IMG/VR virus record: IMGVR_UViG_2541047961_000012
Location: 1 to 6,113 of that record
Reading direction: 5' to 3' (one strand)
DNA from: a virus
Taxonomy: Duplodnaviria; Heunggongvirae; Uroviricota; Caudoviricetes
Length of the DNA: 6,113 nt
The notes beneath the pieces were generated by a model. The model did not search any database. It had not been told where the DNA came from and saw only the letters and a list, made by a program, of their open reading frames with translations. Positions within the stretch are counted from its first letter, which is position 1, and each line of letters opens with the position of its first letter. This document shows positions 1 to 6,113 of the stretch, piece by piece. A program made the translations under genes and the position numbers.

Positions 1-252
1 CTGTTTTCTGGCGTCTCCTGCCAGTGTGATGGTTTTGTCCTGTTTTTCCTGTGCGTCCAGGCTTTTATTAATCAGGTTGCCCAGCGGCGTGGCGGAGAAC
101 GCCGCATCAGCCATTTCCTGGCGGCGCTCGTTCTCTACCCGGTAGGCATCCAGCCAGGAGGAAAGCGCGGATTCAGGAGCGGGGATCCCCGTTCCTTCAC
201 GCCCCACTGCGTGGCGCGGTTGTTGCCAGTCCCTGATGTACTCTGCCGTCAT
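1..252 (-). CDS. hypothetical protein, N-terminal 84 codons only (gene runs off the left edge)
   Basis: Hand translation of the minus strand: ATG at 252..250, open to position 1 with no stop (MTAEYIRDWQQPRHAVGREGTGIP...). It starts 6 nt after the TAA (261..259) of the upstream gene, with only a weak SD. Absent from the ORF track because it is truncated. No family recognised. Confidence 0.45.
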   Translation of the reverse strand, partial: MTAEYIRDWQQPRHAVGREGTGIPAPESALSSWLDAYRVENERRQEMADAAFSATPLGNLINKSLDAQEKQDKTITLAGDARKQ

Positions 253-258
253 AGTGAT

Positions 259-624
259 TTACTTCGTCATGCCATTCAGGGTGTCGCGGCAGACTGTAGC
301 CAGCCGCTGAATTTCCAGCACGGTGTCTTCTGTGTCGGCATGGCGATGTGTGATGCGGATGCTGTCGGCAATCACATCGACGATTGCAGAGGATGGGCGC
401 TGGTAAATGCCAATAACGGACGGGGTGCCGCCTTCAATGCGGTAAAGCCTGTAATTTCCCTCGTGGCTGTCAATCATGTAGCGGCCATCAATAACAATCT
501 TTCCGTCAGCGAGCTGCGGTACAGGCAGGGATTTCAGGTACATGTCATAACGGTCACGCACGCGAACGGCAAGATCACGCTCTGTGTTGAGCAGGTATTC
601 AAGAAAGTCGTTGGCGAGAATCAT
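259..624 (-). CDS. hypothetical protein (121 aa)
   Basis: ORF in track. SD AAGAGGA sits 9 nt upstream of the ATG at 624..622. Composition is protein-like, unlike the overlapping plus-strand frame, which is Cys/Arg-rich. No family recognised. Confidence 0.6.
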   Translation of the reverse strand: MILANDFLEYLLNTERDLAVRVRDRYDMYLKSLPVPQLADGKIVIDGRYMIDSHEGNYRLYRIEGGTPSVIGIYQRPSSAIVDVIADSIRITHRHADTEDTVLEIQRLATVCRDTLNGMTK

Positions 625-696
625 TGCGGCAATCCTCTTGTTACAGATGTGCGAAGGCCTCCCGCCGCAAGGTGCAGGAAAGGCCCGGAACAGGAA

Positions 697-927
697 TTAA
701 TGGAGTTTGTTTTGCTGCTGGATGAGATCCTGAAGAGACAGGAGGTCTTCCGCCAGATAGCTGAATACAGCGGCGCAGTAGTCGGCTGAAATAGTGTTGT
801 TGAGTCTGTGCAATGTGTTGGATTGCATGATAAAGGCGATGTGTGCAGCGCGGGTGAGTCTGCGATCGATTTCAGTCTGGATGTGACGACGCTCCGCGAT
901 AGTGCGGTGCTGTTTGCGGTTTGCCAT
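697..927 (-). CDS. hypothetical small basic protein (76 aa)
   Basis: ORF in track. SD AAGAGG sits 8 nt upstream of the ATG at 927..925. Arg-rich N-terminus (MANRKQHRTIAERRHIQ) could be nucleic-acid binding. No family recognised. Confidence 0.5.
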   Translation of the reverse strand: MANRKQHRTIAERRHIQTEIDRRLTRAAHIAFIMQSNTLHRLNNTISADYCAAVFSYLAEDLLSLQDLIQQQNKLH

Positions 928-1020
928 GGTGTGGCCTCTTTGTTGGTAAGTTTTGAATACTCACCATCCAGAGCTGCGAAACTGTGGGTGGCGAGACGTA
1001 CGAGGTTCGCAGTACCGGTC

Positions 1021-1056
1021 AACAAAGAAAACCCGGCCCGACCGAAGTCGGCCCCG
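1021..1056 (-). terminator. candidate intrinsic terminator (minus strand)
   Basis: Minus strand reads GGGGCCGAC-TTCG-GTCGGGCC followed by GGGTTTTCTTTGTT: a GC-rich stem with one mismatch, a UUCG tetraloop and a T-rich tail. Confidence 0.35.
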
Positions 1057-1106
1057 TACGCCCCACCATAATTCTGATGCGAAAAAATGTGCGGCAATGC
1101 GGTACG

Positions 1107-1234
1107 CACAAAAAAACCGCTGGCGCGGTTGTGCGCTTTGTTGATCAGCAGGCTGCGAAACCCGGCACCCGTTTTATGAGATGCAACGGAAATGTAACCT
1201 GACTGATTGCGGCATGGCAAGCGGTTTTTTTGTG
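1107..1234. repeat. 15-bp perfect inverted repeat pair flanking 98 bp (cacaaaaaaaccgct at 1107..1121; agcggtttttttgtg at 1220..1234)
   Basis: Exact reverse complements, checked base by base. Each arm carries an A7 or T7 tract. The left arm also forms a local hairpin (cgcacaa / ccgc-tggc-gcgg / ttgtgcg) that reads as stem plus T7 on the minus strand. Confidence 0.6.
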
Positions 1235-1247
1235 AGAACGGCATACT

Positions 1248-1292
1248 AAAAAAATCCTGATACTGCTCCGGCCAGCGATTTTCACTGGCCGG
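1248..1292 (-). terminator. candidate terminator of the SPFH operon
   Basis: Perfect 8-bp GC-rich stem (ccggccag 1268..1275 / ctggccgg 1285..1292) with a 9-nt loop, starting 6 nt after the TAA (1301..1299) of the SPFH gene. On the minus strand a T7 tract (1254..1248) follows, but 13 nt beyond the stem, so geometry is non-canonical. Confidence 0.4.
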
Positions 1293-1298
1293 GTTTAA

Positions 1299-2129
1299 TT
1301 ACTTCACCGGAACAAACGGAACAGCGGTGTTGCTGGTCATGTATTGCGGCAGCGTGCCGTTCCATTTGTTGATTGCTTCCAGCTCCATAACGCCGGGATT
1401 CTGGCGCAGAGCTTCACCGCGTAAACGAATGGCGTCGGCTTCAGCCTGGGCTTTTGTGCGAATGGCATCAGCCTGTCCGGCAGCTTCTGCGCGCAACATG
1501 TTGGCTTCTGCTTCGCGTTGCTTGACTTCCTGTTCGCGTTGCAGGGTTTTCTGGTTTGCCGTGACTTTGGCATTAATGCTGTCGATAACGGTTGACGGGT
1601 ACTCCGGCTTACCCACATATGAGAGGCTCATTACCTGAATACCGATGGGTGTCATTTCCTCCTGAATGTCTTTAAGAGCTGCATCCAGTAGTTCAGATTT
1701 CCCGCCGTCGATAAATTTGTCGGTGGTCATTTTGCTGGCCAGTCGGTTGAGTGCATCGGCGATCTTCTGGCGCAGGTCAGTGTCGGTAATGTCATCCACG
1801 CCTTTGCGGTAGGTCTGAAACACTGTAGTAACTTTGGATGGATCAACCTTGTAGGCCACACCGATGTGATAGCCGATGGTTGTGCCGTCACTCATCTGGA
1901 AGCTGAACGGCTCATCGTAGGTCTTCATTTGTTTGAAGGTCGGGAAGATGTAAACCTCGGTATTCCAGCCAGTCCAGTAGCGGCCAACGCCAACCACTTC
2001 GCCGACGCCTTTGTCGTCGCCCAGTTTATTTACCTTGATGCCCACATTACCTGGCTCAACGCGATCGCAACCAACCAGCAGGATGGCGGCAAAAAGCGGG
2101 ATAATCTGAAAGAGTTTGAGTTTCTTCAT
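1299..2129 (-). CDS. SPFH/Band-7 (stomatin/prohibitin/HflKC-like) domain lipoprotein, 276 aa
   Basis: ORF in track. SD GAGGAAA upstream. N-terminal lipoprotein signal MKKLKLFQIIPLFAAILLVGC with lipobox LVGC, and Asp at +2 (CD...). C-terminal Ala/Glu-rich helical region with AEADAIR-type repeats typical of SPFH proteins. The start ATG (2129..2127) overlaps the upstream stop as ATGA. Family call is from motifs only, no HMM run. Confidence 0.8.
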   Translation of the reverse strand: MKKLKLFQIIPLFAAILLVGCDRVEPGNVGIKVNKLGDDKGVGEVVGVGRYWTGWNTEVYIFPTFKQMKTYDEPFSFQMSDGTTIGYHIGVAYKVDPSKVTTVFQTYRKGVDDITDTDLRQKIADALNRLASKMTTDKFIDGGKSELLDAALKDIQEEMTPIGIQVMSLSYVGKPEYPSTVIDSINAKVTANQKTLQREQEVKQREAEANMLRAEAAGQADAIRTKAQAEADAIRLRGEALRQNPGVMELEAINKWNGTLPQYMTSNTAVPFVPVK

Positions 2130-2329
2130 TGTTTGATTTCCTCAATGTATTTACTGAAAAAGCGAACAACGCCTGCCGGGTACAGCAGGGCAATGAAAAT
2201 GCCCAGCAATACCAGGAAGGAACTGTCAGATGAAATCATTCGGGGGAGTAGTCCTGCATACAGGATGAGAGAAATGAGGACGCATACCAGCGCCCACATG
2301 TATGCGCGAAACCATGTCTTGTTGTTCAT
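2126..2329 (-). CDS. small two-helix membrane protein (67 aa)
   Basis: Start chosen at ATG 2329..2327 (MNNKTWFRAYMWALVCVLISLILYAGLLPRMISSDSSFLVLLGIFIALLYPAGVVRFFSKYIEEIKQ). SD AAGGG sits 7 nt upstream and overlaps the TAA of the preceding gene. Two hydrophobic segments with basic termini. The stop overlaps the SPFH start as ATGA. Confidence 0.65.
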   Translation of the reverse strand: MNNKTWFRAYMWALVCVLISLILYAGLLPRMISSDSSFLVLLGIFIALLYPAGVVRFFSKYIEEIKQ

Positions 2330-2339
2330 GTTGCGGCCC

Positions 2340-2639
2340 TTACTGGTTAAGGAAAAAATCGAAAACCTTGTCAATGCGTTGCAGCAGCTCTTGCTGTATT
2401 GCTTCCGGCGTTTCCGGTTCTCCTGGCGCCTCCAACGTCGCGCAGAAATCCTTGATTTCATGATGGAGTGTCAGGCGAATGGCAGGAGCTGTGGTTCTGG
2501 CGTGCTCCAGTTCATCCAGTAGCGCCAGCACGGCAGACGGCGAGAGCATTGCGCGAAACGCCAGTAATTTTTGATGCGTTGCCATTCGTTGCAGGTCAGT
2601 CGCCAGTTCGCGTAATTCCTGGTGGTTGATGGCGCTCAT
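2340..2639 (-). CDS. hypothetical acidic helical protein (99 aa)
   Basis: ORF in track. SD AAGGAAG sits 9 nt upstream. The start overlaps the upstream stop as ATGA (2639..2636). No family recognised. Confidence 0.6.
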   Translation of the reverse strand: MSAINHQELRELATDLQRMATHQKLLAFRAMLSPSAVLALLDELEHARTTAPAIRLTLHHEIKDFCATLEAPGEPETPEAIQQELLQRIDKVFDFFLNQ

Positions 2640-2881
2640 GCTCTGGCTTCCTTCAGTAGCTGGTTAAACATGTTGGTAAGTGGATTGCCGCCCCCGAACG
2701 GCATCGGGTTTATCTGGTAAGAAAAGCGACCGCCTGTTTTGCGCTCTTTTCTTATGACTGAACCGCTGCGCCAGAGTCGGCGTAACTCCGCATTAATGGC
2801 TGTGGTTGGGGTATTCAGTGCTGCGGCGATTTCTCCACCGCTACACCCCGGATTGGCGGCGATATAGTCCAGAATGGTCAT
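2636..2881 (-). CDS. small winged-helix DNA-binding protein, FaeA/PapI-like (81 aa)
   Basis: ORF in track. SD AGGAG sits 9 nt upstream. N-terminal ILDYIAANPGCSGGEIAAAL... resembles the FaeA/PapI-type small wHTH regulators as I recall them. The start overlaps the upstream stop as ATGA (2881..2878). Not verified by search. Confidence 0.55.
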   Translation of the reverse strand: MTILDYIAANPGCSGGEIAAALNTPTTAINAELRRLWRSGSVIRKERKTGGRFSYQINPMPFGGGNPLTNMFNQLLKEARA

Positions 2882-3081
2882 CTGCGTGACTCCTGTACCT
2901 GTCGGATAAGGTTCACCCGCACCACGTTGGTGGCGCAGAAGTAAGTGCCGTCAGTGAGATAGATGTGATGTGCATCCTGTTCTGAACGGTGTTTGTCGAT
3001 TGTGGTAATCAGGCGTTCGTCGACCTCGTATTCACGTCCTCTGGAAGTGAAACGAACGACAGGAAAATGCTTAATTGCCAT
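2878..3081 (-). CDS. hypothetical protein (67 aa), first gene of the SPFH operon
   Basis: ORF in track. Strong SD AAGGAGG sits 5 nt upstream of the ATG at 3081..3079. Preceded by an 86-bp non-coding gap. No family recognised. Confidence 0.55.
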   Translation of the reverse strand: MAIKHFPVVRFTSRGREYEVDERLITTIDKHRSEQDAHHIYLTDGTYFCATNVVRVNLIRQVQESRR

Positions 3082-3167
3082 TGCGCCTCCTTGGCGTGTG
3101 CGAATACCTCCGCGAATGCGGATTGTTTTTACATTTTCTTATTTAACCTGTGGTTTTATTTGCTCTG

Positions 3168-3281
3168 TTATTCGCCAGTGAAAAAGCGTTCAATCTTTTT
3201 TACTGAATGAATAATTCGCATAATCCCAATGGCGCAGACCACCGAAATAATCAGAACAAGCCATGAGATAAATATACTCAT
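3168..3281 (-). CDS. 37-aa hydrophobic micro-protein (MSIFISWLVLIISVVCAIGIMRIIHSVKKIERFFTGE), predicted single-pass membrane peptide
   Basis: Found by hand translation, too short for the ORF track. ATG 3281..3279 overlaps the TGA (3280..3278) of the upstream 80-aa gene as ATGA. A 20-residue hydrophobic helix is followed by a basic tail. Stop TAA at 3170..3168. Only a weak GGGA SD-like element. Confidence 0.4.
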   Translation of the reverse strand: MSIFISWLVLIISVVCAIGIMRIIHSVKKIERFFTGE

Positions 3282-3520
3282 GCGATATTTCCCAGCTTAT
3301 ACGGTTCAATATGTTCCCCGCATTCTGCGGCACAGATCAACTCGGAAAGTTCGTTAAGTGCATCCAGATCATCAGCGTAAAAAGCCACGTCATACAGACT
3401 CCGGATTGCCCTGGTCAATGAGTCACGGGCTGCACGTTCAGCATGAGCGCCTGATGCACTTAAGCGAAAATAAAAACGCTCAAGTGCTTTGTTAATGAGA
3501 GTTTTATATTCTTTGCCCAT
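3278..3520 (-). CDS. hypothetical protein (80 aa)
   Basis: ORF in track. SD AAGGG sits 7 nt upstream of the ATG at 3520..3518, 11 nt after the upstream stop. No family recognised. Confidence 0.55.
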   Translation of the reverse strand: MGKEYKTLINKALERFYFRLSASGAHAERAARDSLTRAIRSLYDVAFYADDLDALNELSELICAAECGEHIEPYKLGNIA

Positions 3521-3531
3521 CGCAACGCCCT

Positions 3532-3819
3532 TTAATCTGCTTTCTGAATTTCAGTTTCTGAATCCATACAAATAATTTCGATATAGGGTTCATCGCCATT
3601 AGCCGGGCGTGCCTTTTCAGCTTCACTAATGATTTCTCGTACGGTCTGGTACGGAAGTTCCACAAGCAGTCGCGTGCCGTTCAGATAAACGTAAGTGGCT
3701 TCGTTGGCTCCGTTTTTACCCGCCGGAGCCACTCCATCAATAGCGGATGCGCGTAATAACAGTTCACCGCGAAAATCAATAAAACGGATAAATACACCTT
3801 GTGCATGCTCTTTGGTCAT
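3532..3819 (-). CDS. hypothetical protein (95 aa)
   Basis: Track ORF 3532..3879 trimmed to the internal ATG at 3819..3817 (MTKEHAQGVFIRF...). That start has SD AGGTG 5 nt upstream and lies 10 nt after the upstream stop. The longer start at 3879 has no SD and would overlap the upstream gene by 50 nt. Confidence 0.55.
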   Translation of the reverse strand: MTKEHAQGVFIRFIDFRGELLLRASAIDGVAPAGKNGANEATYVYLNGTRLLVELPYQTVREIISEAEKARPANGDEPYIEIICMDSETEIQKAD

Positions 3820-3829
3820 AACGCACCTG

Positions 3830-4180
3830 TTATAAATCAGCCTGTTTAATAAAACTTTGCCCGCGAAGCAGACGATCAACCGTGCGAAGTGCTTCGTATA
3901 ATGTGAAATCCTGTCCGAACTGATTGTCGCCGCAGCTCAATGAAAAAATGCGGTTTCCGGTAAACGGATTGCGTGGGCATTTGTGGACCACGATCCCGGC
4001 TTTCTCAATCAGCCAGGTATGCTCGCCGATTTGTTTTACTGGGTAGCCATCCGGCGTTGCGTGTGTTTCGCTCAGGCTGTAGCGAGAGCTGCTACGTGAT
4101 GCGCTGGTAGCGAAACGGTTAGCATGGCGTTCCGCACCGTTGCGGAAGCGCTGCTGTGAAGAATTGCGCCGTTCCTTCAT
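3830..4180 (-). CDS. hypothetical protein (116 aa) with a basic Ser/Arg-rich N-terminal region
   Basis: ORF in track. SD GGAG sits about 9 nt upstream of the ATG at 4180..4178. First gene after cox. No family recognised. Confidence 0.55.
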   Translation of the reverse strand: MKERRNSSQQRFRNGAERHANRFATSASRSSSRYSLSETHATPDGYPVKQIGEHTWLIEKAGIVVHKCPRNPFTGNRIFSLSCGDNQFGQDFTLYEALRTVDRLLRGQSFIKQADL

Positions 4181-4217
4181 ATCAAAATACTCCGCCTAAA
4201 ATGAGTTATGGTTTGAG

Positions 4218-4643
4218 TTATGCTGCTTTACCGCTGATGTTTCTGTTTCGTCTGCCACTTGTTGGCTTAAACAAAAACAGACGGTTTTCCCAGTCGTGCC
4301 ATTCCTGAGGTGCGTTTTCGATGAGGCGATCGCATGCTTCATCCCACGCTTTTCTGTTGATGTAGAGTTCAGCGTTTCCGCCTGGTTTAAGAGGGTCCGC
4401 CATATACACCGCAGGTAGCTTTCCTGCTTTGGCCATGCTTACGATGGCGTCAACGGTCTTTCCGATATACATCGCAAATCCTTCTTTTGACAGGAGATGC
4501 GAGGGATTTTCTGAAAGTCGAATTTCTTCACGTTCACGTGCTTTGCGTCCTGTTTTTTGATACTCCCCCTCTGGCATTTCTGACAGGCGATCGCATCGTG
4601 TTCCGCAAAGTGACTCAGGCGCGTTTTGAGTGCTTTCTTGCAT
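4218..4643 (-). CDS. cox: Cox/Apl-like excisionase-regulator homolog with a roughly 50-aa N-terminal extension (141 aa)
   Basis: Divergent from the C-type repressor. Core FAMYIGKTVDAIVSMAKAGKLPAVYMADP resembles the P2 Cox HTH region as I recall it. Strong SD GGAGG sits 8 nt upstream of the ATG at 4643..4641; the internal Met23 has no SD. Confidence 0.7.
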   Translation of the reverse strand: MQESTQNAPESLCGTRCDRLSEMPEGEYQKTGRKAREREEIRLSENPSHLLSKEGFAMYIGKTVDAIVSMAKAGKLPAVYMADPLKPGGNAELYINRKAWDEACDRLIENAPQEWHDWENRLFLFKPTSGRRNRNISGKAA

Positions 4644-4751
4644 CTGATATCCTCCGCTATTGGTGCTTTCTTCTAACTAGCACCATTTAGAACTAGTTAG
4701 CGCAATTCGTTGTGTGTTAATTGATGTATAAACTAAGTGAGTTAACTTACT
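4644..4751. promoter_or_regulatory. C/cox divergent switch region with operator-like dyads
   Basis: 108-bp AT-rich gap between divergent start codons. Inverted repeat CTAACTAG (4673..4680) / CTAGTTAG (4693..4700) with a 12-bp spacer. AACTAG direct repeats at 4675 and 4691. Dyad TGGTGC (4661..4666) / GCACCA (4680..4685). TATAAA at 4727..4732 preceded by TG. Exact promoter hexamers could not be assigned. Confidence 0.55.
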
Positions 4752-5051
4752 ATGTCAACTACCGTAGCTATGAAAATTCGCATCATGCGGAAGTCAGAAA
4801 TGCTTACACAAGAAAAAATGGCAGAGATTACTGGGCTTACTCTTGCTGCATTAAGGCAATATGAGCAAGGACGAAATGAACCCAACCTTGAGTCAACAAA
4901 AAAGCTTCTGAAAGCCCCCATGTTCCGTAAGTACCGCGACTGGTTTTTGTTTGATGAAGTTGAACCCAAGGCCGGGCAGGTTGTACCGGCTCTCGCACAC
5001 ATTGGGCAAGGCGAAGCGGAATCATCCCGCTCCGGCAAGAAGACTGGTTAA
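4752..5051 (+). CDS. C: P2 C-type immunity repressor (99 aa)
   Basis: ORF in track. Same length as P2 C, and the sequence (MSTTVAMKIRIMRKSEML...VPALAHIGQ...SGKKTG) closely resembles P2 C as I recall it, with an HTH near the N-terminus. Sits directly upstream of int on the same strand, as in P2. Confidence 0.85.
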   Translation: MSTTVAMKIRIMRKSEMLTQEKMAEITGLTLAALRQYEQGRNEPNLESTKKLLKAPMFRKYRDWFLFDEVEPKAGQVVPALAHIGQGEAESSRSGKKTG

Positions 5052-5117
5052 CGGTTCACCAGGCATTTATTTCCCAGAGCTGTGATCAAGATGATGTTTT
5101 CATTGGAGGGCTTCCTT

Positions 5118-6113
5118 ATGTCGATTAAGAAGCTCGCTAATGGCAAATTCTGTGTGGACGTGCGGCCAGCTGGATCAGAAGGAAAAAGATTCAGGCGGCG
5201 ATTTGATACTCGTGGTGAGGCTGTTTTGTATGAGCGTCATGTATTGCAGCATTACCACGACAAAGACTGGGTTGATAAGCCAACAGAACGGCGCTCGCTG
5301 AGGGAGTTGCTGGATTGTTGGTGGCTATACCACGGGAAAAATCATCCTTACGGTGCGATGGAGCGAGTGCGTATTTCTGCGGTCATTAGTGATCTTGAAA
5401 GTATTAATGTTACACGCAGCGACCAACTTACTCGTAAGAACATAATTAATTATCGGTTATTGTTGCTTAACCGCGGAATAAAACAATCCACGGTTAATCG
5501 TTATTGCGCAATGATGAGTGGTTTCTTCACAAAACTAATTGACGCAGAGGAATATTCTGGGGCTAATCCGTTTCATGATGTGAAAAAACTTAATATCAAA
5601 CAGCCTGAAATGGCTTATTTGTATCATGAGGATATTCCACGATTACTGGAGTTGTTATCTGGTGATGAATTAAAAGCTGTCTTGTTGTGTCTGGCAACAG
5701 GTGGAAGATGGAGTGAGGTTGCAAATATCAAGGGGGAGCATGTTATTAGCGGCAAAGTCATTTTTATGGAAACCAAAAATGGGAAGCGTCGCGTTATACC
5801 TATATCGTCAGAACTGGAGTGCATGATTAAAACAAAGGCCACTGGTCGTTTAATTTATCCAAGTTATGCCGCTGTCAGAGCTGCTATCAGAAAGGTGAGG
5901 CCCGATCTTCCTGAAGGGCAGTCGATACATGTTTTACGGCATACCTTTGCCACTCACTTCATGATTAATGGTGGGAATATCATCACTTTGCAGAGAATAC
6001 TTGGGCATAGCACTATTCAGCAGACGATGACTTATGCCCATTTTGCACCGGATTATCTGCAGGATGCTGTGCGCTTTAATCCTGTGGCTGAGTTGTCCAG
6101 ATATTGCCCATAA
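5118..6113 (+). CDS. int: tyrosine site-specific integrase, P2 Int-like (331 aa)
   Basis: Start moved from the track's 5082 to the ATG at 5118, which has SD GGAGGG 7 nt upstream and gives MSIKKLANGKFCVDVRP..., like the P2 Int N-terminus. C-terminal catalytic signature HVLRHTFATHF...GHSTIQQTMTYAH (H-x-x-R box and Tyr nucleophile). The stop TAA is the last 3 nt of the window. Confidence 0.9.
   Translation: MSIKKLANGKFCVDVRPAGSEGKRFRRRFDTRGEAVLYERHVLQHYHDKDWVDKPTERRSLRELLDCWWLYHGKNHPYGAMERVRISAVISDLESINVTRSDQLTRKNIINYRLLLLNRGIKQSTVNRYCAMMSGFFTKLIDAEEYSGANPFHDVKKLNIKQPEMAYLYHEDIPRLLELLSGDELKAVLLCLATGGRWSEVANIKGEHVISGKVIFMETKNGKRRVIPISSELECMIKTKATGRLIYPSYAAVRAAIRKVRPDLPEGQSIHVLRHTFATHFMINGGNIITLQRILGHSTIQQTMTYAHFAPDYLQDAVRFNPVAELSRYCP

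Follow-up and report, generated by a model that had tools for sequence, protein, structure and literature searches.

Here we describe a two-gene cassette within a 6,113-base stretch of viral DNA (positions 1 to 6,113 of the IMG/VR record IMGVR_UViG_2541047961_000012; hereafter the window), which encodes a predicted lipoprotein with an SPFH domain and a small, predicted two-helix membrane protein. Over its full length, the window shares 95.3% nucleotide identity with Escherichia phage P88 (blastn), a P2-family phage classified as Peduoviridae, Xuanwuvirus. By this sequence, the carrier of the cassette is identified as a P88-like (P2-family) E. coli prophage, and the match agrees with a preliminary description of this DNA, which had spoken of a phage-borne SPFH lipoprotein.

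We give an even chance to a reading in which the SPFH protein is expressed early and builds a cage-like scaffold, organised together with its two-helix partner, on the periplasmic side of the inner membrane. The two genes would constitute a mobile accessory cassette of a P88-like temperate phage, read within the repressor-controlled early lytic operon. The small protein would insert into the inner membrane as a two-helix hairpin. The SPFH protein, after export and lipidation at Cys21, would be held flat on the periplasmic side of the same membrane. There, it would oligomerise via a 65-residue helix into a ring or cage, like prohibitin and HflK/C, and fence in an inner-membrane patch, which its two-helix partner either occupies or helps to organise. 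Any gain for the phage at the start of infection would depend on the host component that this cage encloses or excludes.

Export signal and fold of the SPFH protein

The SPFH gene (1299–2129, minus strand) encodes a prohibitin-like SPFH/Band 7 lipoprotein precursor of 276 amino acids, assigned by its matches to Pfam Band_7 and PHROG 200, its identity with P88 gp12, its AlphaFold2 (AF2) model and Foldseek comparisons. The gene is already present in databases, as P88 gp12 and PHROG 200, and hence is not new: the P88 protein, labelled either ‘putative SPFH domain protein’ or ‘lipoprotein’, is 98.6% identical, and PHROG 200 (‘lipoprotein’) is matched at 9.4e-112. P88 gp12 and gp11, phiP27 L05 and PHROG 200 and 1130 represent the same proteins as those discussed here, with no structural difference, and the P88, phiP27 and PHROG entries carry names only (‘SPFH domain protein’, ‘lipoprotein’, ‘serine protease’), with no function assigned. 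A GAGGA motif lies 9 nucleotides upstream of the start codon, which itself overlaps the stop codon of the 67-residue open reading frame (ORF) of the partner as ATGA.

The N-terminus of the protein reads MKKLKLFQIIPLFAAILLVGC followed by DRVEPG. According to sequence reading and a pattern check, residues 1–20, MKKLKLFQIIPLFAAILLVG (2070–2129, minus strand), form the signal peptide, which starts with MKKLK, has three Lys within residues 1–7 and continues into a hydrophobic stretch without charge. It ends in the lipobox L18-V19-G20-C21 (2067–2078), which is followed by the sorting residues Asp22 at position +2 (2064–2066) and Arg23 at position +3 (2061–2063), so that lipobox and sorting residues together occupy 2061–2078 of the minus strand. 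This arrangement matches a PROSITE PS51257-type lipoprotein pattern and has all the marks of bacterial lipoproteins, namely a basic N-terminus, a hydrophobic core and a lipobox [LVI][ASTVI][GAS]C whose Cys lies between positions 15 and 35. The lipobox is not a product of chance: of 120 close homologues, 108 retain its Cys, as do 126 of 140 diverse cluster representatives; the Cys together with the subsequent Asp-Arg-Val is conserved in 100 of the 120 close homologues. We infer that the protein is lipidated at Cys21. The lipobox and Asp of the preliminary description are thus where it had placed them, and its periplasmic SPFH domain gains support, as a prediction, from the lipoprotein signal peptide, given which the domain should lie in the periplasm.

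This part of the gene also marks a boundary in DNA comparisons. The DNA identity with phiP27 and Shiga toxin (Stx) phages (93%) begins and ends inside the SPFH gene, covering only positions 1332–2078 (edge at 2072–2078), with a counterpart at positions 2513–3259 of the phiP27 locus. The mature SPFH part is common to both, whereas these phages differ from the window in the type of signal peptide, the last few C-terminal codons and the type of partner gene. This suggests intragenic recombination within the SPFH gene.

The SPFH domain of the preliminary description is confirmed by Pfam, where Band_7 (PF01145) matches residues 23–209 (1503–2063, minus strand) with 106.7 bits against a cut-off of 23.6 (E-value 1.8e-30). 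For the structure, an AF2 monomer model was built on a 42-sequence alignment and is confident, with a predicted local distance difference test score (pLDDT) of 87.4; a single-sequence run was unusable (pLDDT 47). In this model, the signal helix is followed by a β-sheet (residues 21–95) that starts at Cys21, by helices (97–159) and a strand (164–176), and then by a single 65-residue helix (179–243; 1401–1595, minus strand), a short helix and a flexible tail. The long helix aligns with the coiled-coil regions of prohibitin and HflK/C and corresponds to the coiled-coil wall of SPFH cages.

In a profile search of the PDB, prohibitin 1 is the top match (E-value 1.9e-10) and is covered from the anchor to the long helix, followed by HflK/HflC at about 4e-7, PHB2 and then QmcA at 2e-6. 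The Foldseek matches to HflC, PHB2, erlin, stomatin, flotillin and QmcA range from 1e-14 to 1e-8, those to HflC, PHB, erlin and stomatin from 1e-13 to 1e-14, and the probability is 1.0 for HflC, PHB, erlin, stomatin and flotillin. Foldseek does not separate the subfamilies, and its top matches are exclusively cage-forming SPFH proteins. Both the model and these matches display the SPFH fold with a long helix as found in cage-forming members. Since all of these structural relatives build large membrane rings or cages, it is reasonable to expect from the model that the phage protein may do the same. On the sequence level, these comparisons place it as a prohibitin-like member of the superfamily.

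The preliminary description had called the protein HflK/C-like. Its suggested check, structural modelling against HflK/C, bears this out for the cage-type fold, though Foldseek does not single out HflC. As a subfamily assignment, the claim fails: the NCBIfam HflK/HflC models (TIGR01932/01933, NF008259/NF008181) score 19–24 bits against cut-offs of 134–660, and an NCBIfam scan returned HflK, HflC and FloT matches that were all below threshold. Furthermore, instead of two paralogous SPFH genes side by side, as in the HflK/C arrangement, the window has a single SPFH gene next to a gene for a 67-residue two-helix protein. These scores and the single gene reject an identity as HflK or HflC.

Prohibitin (PHB1/PHB2 of the mitochondrial inner membrane) is, by profile, the best match among solved structures. 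It shares with the phage protein an N-terminal anchor, the SPFH domain, the long helix and a conserved C-terminal W-x-G-x-L-P region, in the same order, and its SPFH domain also lies on the non-cytoplasmic side of an energy-transducing membrane; some homologues are annotated as ‘prohibitin family protein’. Nevertheless, the identity is only 14–17%, the phage protein has a predicted lipid anchor where prohibitin has a helix, a single gene with a dedicated two-helix partner stands in place of two paralogous subunits, and no protease link is known for the phage protein. HflK/HflC of the E. coli FtsH complex likewise resembles it in having a periplasmic SPFH domain, here predicted, and a cage-type fold (Foldseek 7e-14 to HflC), and differs from it by the failed family models, by the single SPFH gene with its lipid anchor, and by the partner, which is a 67-residue hairpin and not a second SPFH subunit. 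A third arrangement, the SPFH-NfeD operons (e.g. QmcA-YbbJ), also couples an SPFH gene to a gene for a small membrane protein. QmcA itself is a weaker match, however, and the phage partner, with 67 residues and without a Pfam match, has no NfeD/OB-fold domain. Moreover, QmcA faces the cytoplasm, whereas the phage SPFH protein carries an export signal.

The two-helix partner and the mobile cassette

The partner gene (2126–2329, minus strand) encodes the 67-residue protein known as P88 gp11, assigned by the P88 annotation, a match to PHROG 1130 (‘membrane protein’, 1.2e-21) and its Lys/Arg distribution; it is the adjacent protein with two transmembrane segments that had been noted before. From the Lys/Arg distribution, it is predicted to form a hairpin with both termini on the inside (N-in/C-in) and a short periplasmic loop, LPRMISSDSS. 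Pfam has no family for this protein, and a Pfam scan of 16 partner sequences returned noise only. Apart from a pair of hydrophobic helices and the short loop P-x-[LMF]-[ILVF]-[SN]-x-x-x-[DST], the partner sequences have little in common.

Despite this divergence, a comparable ORF is regularly found beside the SPFH gene. All 80 of 80 IMG/VR loci have a two-helix ORF of 60–78 residues that ends at or overlaps the SPFH start. The partner is located directly upstream of the SPFH gene in Cyrano, in phiEaP8 and in three metagenomic or prophage loci, and two to three genes upstream in FENT2, PaP4 and ST-3. Among 80 bacterial species, each represented by one genome, at least 38 have a small ORF with two transmembrane segments directly upstream of the SPFH gene, including Dyella, Pseudomonas, Leptospira, Flavobacterium, Caulobacter and Sphingomonas. 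A tblastn search with a 66-residue partner against all phages, too insensitive for short membrane proteins, found 6 records only, and a word-based protein search retrieved close relatives only. A hidden Markov model applied to extracted loci performed better; built from ten partners, it recovered a previously unannotated copy in the N4-like Erwinia phage phiEaP8 at 2e-14. By these sequence comparisons, the partner is conserved beside this SPFH subfamily well beyond enterobacterial phages. We infer that the two proteins contact each other.

Several annotations at these loci deserve mention. The partner ORF is unannotated in phiP27 (positions 3304–3492 of its locus, minus strand) as well as in phiEaP8 (positions 1307–1516 of its locus, plus strand). 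In the latter, the SPFH gene (1447–2370) is annotated with 307 residues, including an N-terminal extension, under the name ‘serine protease’, apparently a mislabel inherited from older annotation. Directly 3' of it (2437–3192) lies a gene for a 251-residue AAA+ ATPase annotated as ClpX-like, possibly a coincidental neighbour.

The pair is co-directional in the early operons of four types of temperate phages, namely P88, phiP27/Stx phages, P1-like phage-plasmids and SSU5-like phage-plasmids (e.g. Cyrano), with unchanged gene order and usually an identical four-nucleotide overlap. In phiP27 and Stx phages, it is located between xis and early-left genes, with SPFH copies about 92% identical to that of the window. 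In P1-like phage-plasmids, the cassette (positions 2784–3828 of an example locus) lies between plp/upl and tRNA-Ile/ban, upstream of ban. P1 itself has tciA-tciB-tciC (P1 locus 14473–16009), annotated as tellurite/colicin resistance, in this slot. P1 Plp/Upl, a ‘putative lipoprotein’ and a small ORF, was considered as another instance of the pair and rejected, as blastp found no similarity. In virulent phages, the pair occupies early or DNA-metabolism regions. Overall, 683 of 50,697 phage records give a tblastn match to the SPFH protein; they are temperate as well as virulent and include N4-like phages, Vequintavirinae, Kolesnikvirus, Bruynoghevirus, phiCbK, Kayvirus and haloviruses. SPFH DNA is present in 716 of 5,426 complete E. 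coli genomes, at 418 chromosomal and 390 plasmid places (prophages and phage-plasmids), and an exhaustive search of 50%-identity cluster representatives yielded 2,887 proteins at E ≤ 1e-3, of which 219 reach E ≤ 1e-30.

The size and predicted topology of the partner, with two helices and a charged C-terminus, resemble those of class II holins, which raises the question of a role in lysis. The pair could regulate membrane integrity or the timing of lysis, with the SPFH ring restraining or timing the holin-like hairpin or stabilising the energised membrane. P2-type phages, for their part, already carry a late lysis cassette of their own, and the pair is found in early regions far from the lysis genes in P88, P1-like phages, Stx phages and most virulent phages. 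In staphylococcal Kayvirus, the gene for the SPFH homologue MbpS is flanked by the endolysin gene and tgl, next to a holin-like protein (PMC7150955), but at 25% identity (tblastn) MbpS is very distant. All in all, we find a role in lysis improbable.

The boundaries of the cassette follow from a natural comparison. The near-identical phage P884B11 matches the window (blastn) at positions 1–1234 and 2319–4150, and in P884B11 these matched blocks abut with zero bases between them; positions 1235–2318 therefore represent a precise insertion or deletion of 1,084 bp. This accessory cassette, or moron, on the minus strand contains the gene for the two-helix protein, the SPFH gene and a 3' hairpin, and is present in P88 and the window and missing from P884B11. 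The hairpin, a stem-loop of 11 bp just 3' of the SPFH stop codon (1268–1292, minus strand), has a folding energy of −23.4 kcal/mol (z = −3.5; none of 200 shuffled sequences folds as well). It is not a canonical terminator, because the U-run does not come until 12 nucleotides beyond it, and a terminator scan did not report it.

With regard to expression, a consensus scan of the minus strand found no σ70-like promoter within the cassette or immediately upstream of it; the sole site of this kind, 1220–1191, fits the 5' end of a downstream isrK-like RNA. Given that no promoter of its own was found, the cassette is most simply read from the repressor-controlled early promoter, which points to early expression within the lytic operon.

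Membrane destination

The preliminary description relied on the Asp at +2 to keep the lipoprotein in the inner membrane. This residue is present in 104 of the 108 close homologues with a lipobox. Furthermore, the AF2 model has no linker between Cys21 and the first β-strand of the SPFH domain, and outer-membrane lipoproteins whose linkers are deleted end up in the inner membrane instead (El Rayes 2021). The partner, whose translation is coupled to that of the SPFH gene, is predicted to be an inner-membrane hairpin. Finally, there are homologues without the lipid anchor. In 11 of the 120 close homologues (including P0064, P0065, P0070, P0071, P0113, P0115, P0116 and P0118–P0120), Tyr, Trp or Phe stands in place of the Cys, with Asp-Arg-Val-Glu-Pro-Gly preserved; the frequent variants of this kind, found in 175 (P0115), 50 and 23 contigs of about 110 kb, probably come from SSU5-like phage-plasmids. 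Judging by their sequences, these variants cannot be lipoproteins. In the wider family, an uncleaved-looking N-terminal helix replaces the Cys in 13 of the 140 representatives as well as in about 20 Acidobacteriota homologues. Without a lipidated Cys, both groups cannot use the Lol route. Retention in the inner membrane is favoured because of these four lines, that is, the Asp at +2, the missing linker, the inner-membrane partner and the homologues with a helix or without the Cys.

Several points weigh against the proposed scaffold at the inner membrane. A strong Lol-avoidance signal consists of an Asp at +2 without an adjacent basic residue, with usually Asp, Glu or Gln at +3 (PMC6469965); here, +3 is Arg, a basic neighbour of the Asp, and the protein departs from this signal. 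Among homologues with enterobacterial hosts, position +2 is Glu in those of Klebsiella phage-plasmids and Vequintavirinae, Asn in Kolesnikvirus and Ala in Symbiopectobacterium, so that the wider family can do without Asp; over the family as a whole, this residue is mostly Thr or Ser, with Asp in only 13 of 126 sequences. As Asp-Arg-Val is also retained in the variants without Cys, its conservation cannot serve sorting only. Likewise, about half of the E. coli outer-membrane lipoproteins have no long linker either (El Rayes 2021), and an HflK/C-like prophage protein of P. multocida, whose kinship is known by description only, has been reported in outer-membrane vesicles (PMC9872710). Beyond sorting, the grounds for cage formation and for contact with the partner are a monomer model and gene linkage, and the promoter scan is crude enough to leave room for expression of the cassette in lysogens. 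Our literature searches found no table of +3 effects on retention by Asp at +2.

Some of these points could be read in favour of an outer-membrane or vesicle lipoprotein, possibly a factor of lysogenic conversion or virulence. The Arg at +3 may weaken retention, sorting to the outer membrane is predicted for related enterobacterial homologues by their Glu, Asn or Ala at +2, and the P. multocida protein, PM0222, contributes to virulence (PMC9872710). Like the protein of the window, PM0222 is prophage-encoded and an SPFH protein, described as HflK/C-like; it differs in being found in outer-membrane vesicles and acting on host TLR1/2, and the comparison is by description only (PMC9872710). We nonetheless hold an outer-membrane destination to be quite improbable: it is at odds with the near-constant Asp at +2 in close homologues, the missing linker, the coupled inner-membrane hairpin and the homologues that cannot reach the outer membrane via Lol, and equally with the position in the early lytic operon, the lack of a detected promoter and the frequency of the SPFH gene in strictly virulent phages. 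On balance, the evidence tilts somewhat towards retention in the inner membrane. Of the earlier argument, the Asp at +2 and the plausibility of retention stand, while the Arg at +3 and the other residues found at +2 tell against it.

Candidate clients and neighbouring genes

If the SPFH protein indeed forms a cage at the periplasmic surface of the inner membrane, one may ask which host component it might enclose or exclude. The literature searches turned up nothing functional on SPFH lipoproteins of phages; mentions were limited to passing annotations and a single speculation, on Kayvirus MbpS.

One candidate is FtsH. A periplasmic SPFH ring that modulates FtsH in the manner of HflK/C could capture or displace the host protease and alter the turnover of its substrates, such as CII, CIII and Xis of lambdoid phages or membrane proteins. 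Prohibitin and HflK/C, the two nearest solved relatives, both partner FtsH-type AAA proteases, the predicted side of the membrane is that of HflK/C, and the 92% identical gene in phiP27 and Stx phages, which are lambdoid, adjoins xis/int. Against this speak the low scores in the HflK/HflC equivalog models (19–24 bits versus 134–660), an identity to HflK/C of only 15–19%, and the absence of any FtsH-related gene linked to the pair. Moreover, HflK is anchored by its own helix near the FtsH helices, whereas the phage protein is a single gene product with a predicted lipid anchor. The distribution is also telling: the pair is equally common in P2-like, P1-like, N4-like and other virulent phages without a known FtsH-dependent switch, and P2-type phages decide on lysogeny via C/Cox. 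This spread argues against FtsH control of lysogeny as the general role of the cassette. We therefore regard FtsH modulation as unlikely; FtsH may be one candidate client, and the link is pure speculation that no tested feature supports.

Another candidate role is superinfection exclusion or envelope protection, in which the early pair in the periplasm and inner membrane would keep other phages, colicins and the like from delivering DNA or attacking the envelope. T4 Imm and Sp and other phage membrane proteins or lipoproteins act in this way, and exclusion systems frequently combine a small protein in the inner membrane with another in the periplasm. The presence or absence of the cassette as an accessory element, the periplasmic exposure of the SPFH protein, the early-operon location in temperate as well as virulent phages and the use of the tciABC slot in P1-like phage-plasmids would all fit such a role. 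On the other hand, neither member of the pair matched a defence system when ten window proteins were scanned with PADLOC, there is no similarity to known exclusion proteins, the consensus scan found no promoter for expression in lysogens, and the literature searches gave no support; we also know of no SPFH protein that acts in exclusion. On this evidence, exclusion appears rather unlikely.

More broadly, the SPFH lipoprotein and its two-helix partner might represent a distinct, undescribed two-component SPFH system. Such a system would be prohibitin-like and face away from the cytoplasm, with a lipid or helix anchor and a mini-partner with the loop P-x-L-I-S, and its conservation would reach from enterobacterial phages as far as loci of Dyella, Pseudomonas, Leptospira, Caulobacter and Sphingomonas; phages would have spread it as an early cassette that fences off or shields the inner membrane, for instance in competitor exclusion, counter-defence or membrane-protease control. 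We put this forward tentatively and consider it possible, if doubtful.

For HflK/C, prohibitin, stomatin, flotillin and QmcA, the structure of the SPFH cage is understood. As far as we found, the combination of a lipid-anchored, prohibitin-like SPFH protein and a conserved two-helix partner is a variant without characterisation in the literature searched. If true, a phage SPFH cage with a partner of only 67 residues would be a compact, genetically tractable model for how such cages choose a membrane patch or client, and the cassette could reveal a new phage route to remodel the host envelope early in infection. The natural pair of P88 and P884B11, with and without the cassette, makes the question of function directly testable. 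As it stands, what we describe would best be called an already annotated accessory gene together with a hypothesis.

The rest of the window is organised as follows. Integrase (5082–6113) and the C repressor (4752–5051) are encoded on the plus strand. The early operon on the minus strand starts with Cox (4218–4643), followed by a DUF4761 protein, a DUF4754 protein, a winged-helix protein, an Ead/Ea22-like protein (2340–2639), the 67-residue membrane protein and the SPFH gene. Downstream of the latter, also on the minus strand, are two small RNA genes, a 76-residue ORF, a 121-residue ORF and the start of a replication gene.

The RNA genes, just downstream of the cassette, are a C4 antisense RNA (984–1073; Rfam RF01695, 77.8 bits) and the isrK-like RNA (1110–1184; RF01394, 66.4 bits), with the promoter-like site that fits the isrK 5' end at 1191–1220. 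The subsequent 76-residue ORF (697–927, minus strand) corresponds to the P88 ‘derepression protein’ and to PHROG 3688. We considered whether this isrK/C4/‘derepression protein’ block forms part of the cassette, which the blastn boundaries against P884B11 rule out. The block resembles the c4-ant immunity module of P1/P7, here within a P2-type phage. A 207-residue ORF (621–1244, minus strand) overlies the C4 and isrK RNA genes, and its counterpart in P884B11, gp51 (positions 2121–2738 of that locus), is annotated as ‘transcriptional regulator’; it is probably a spurious protein call over RNA genes.

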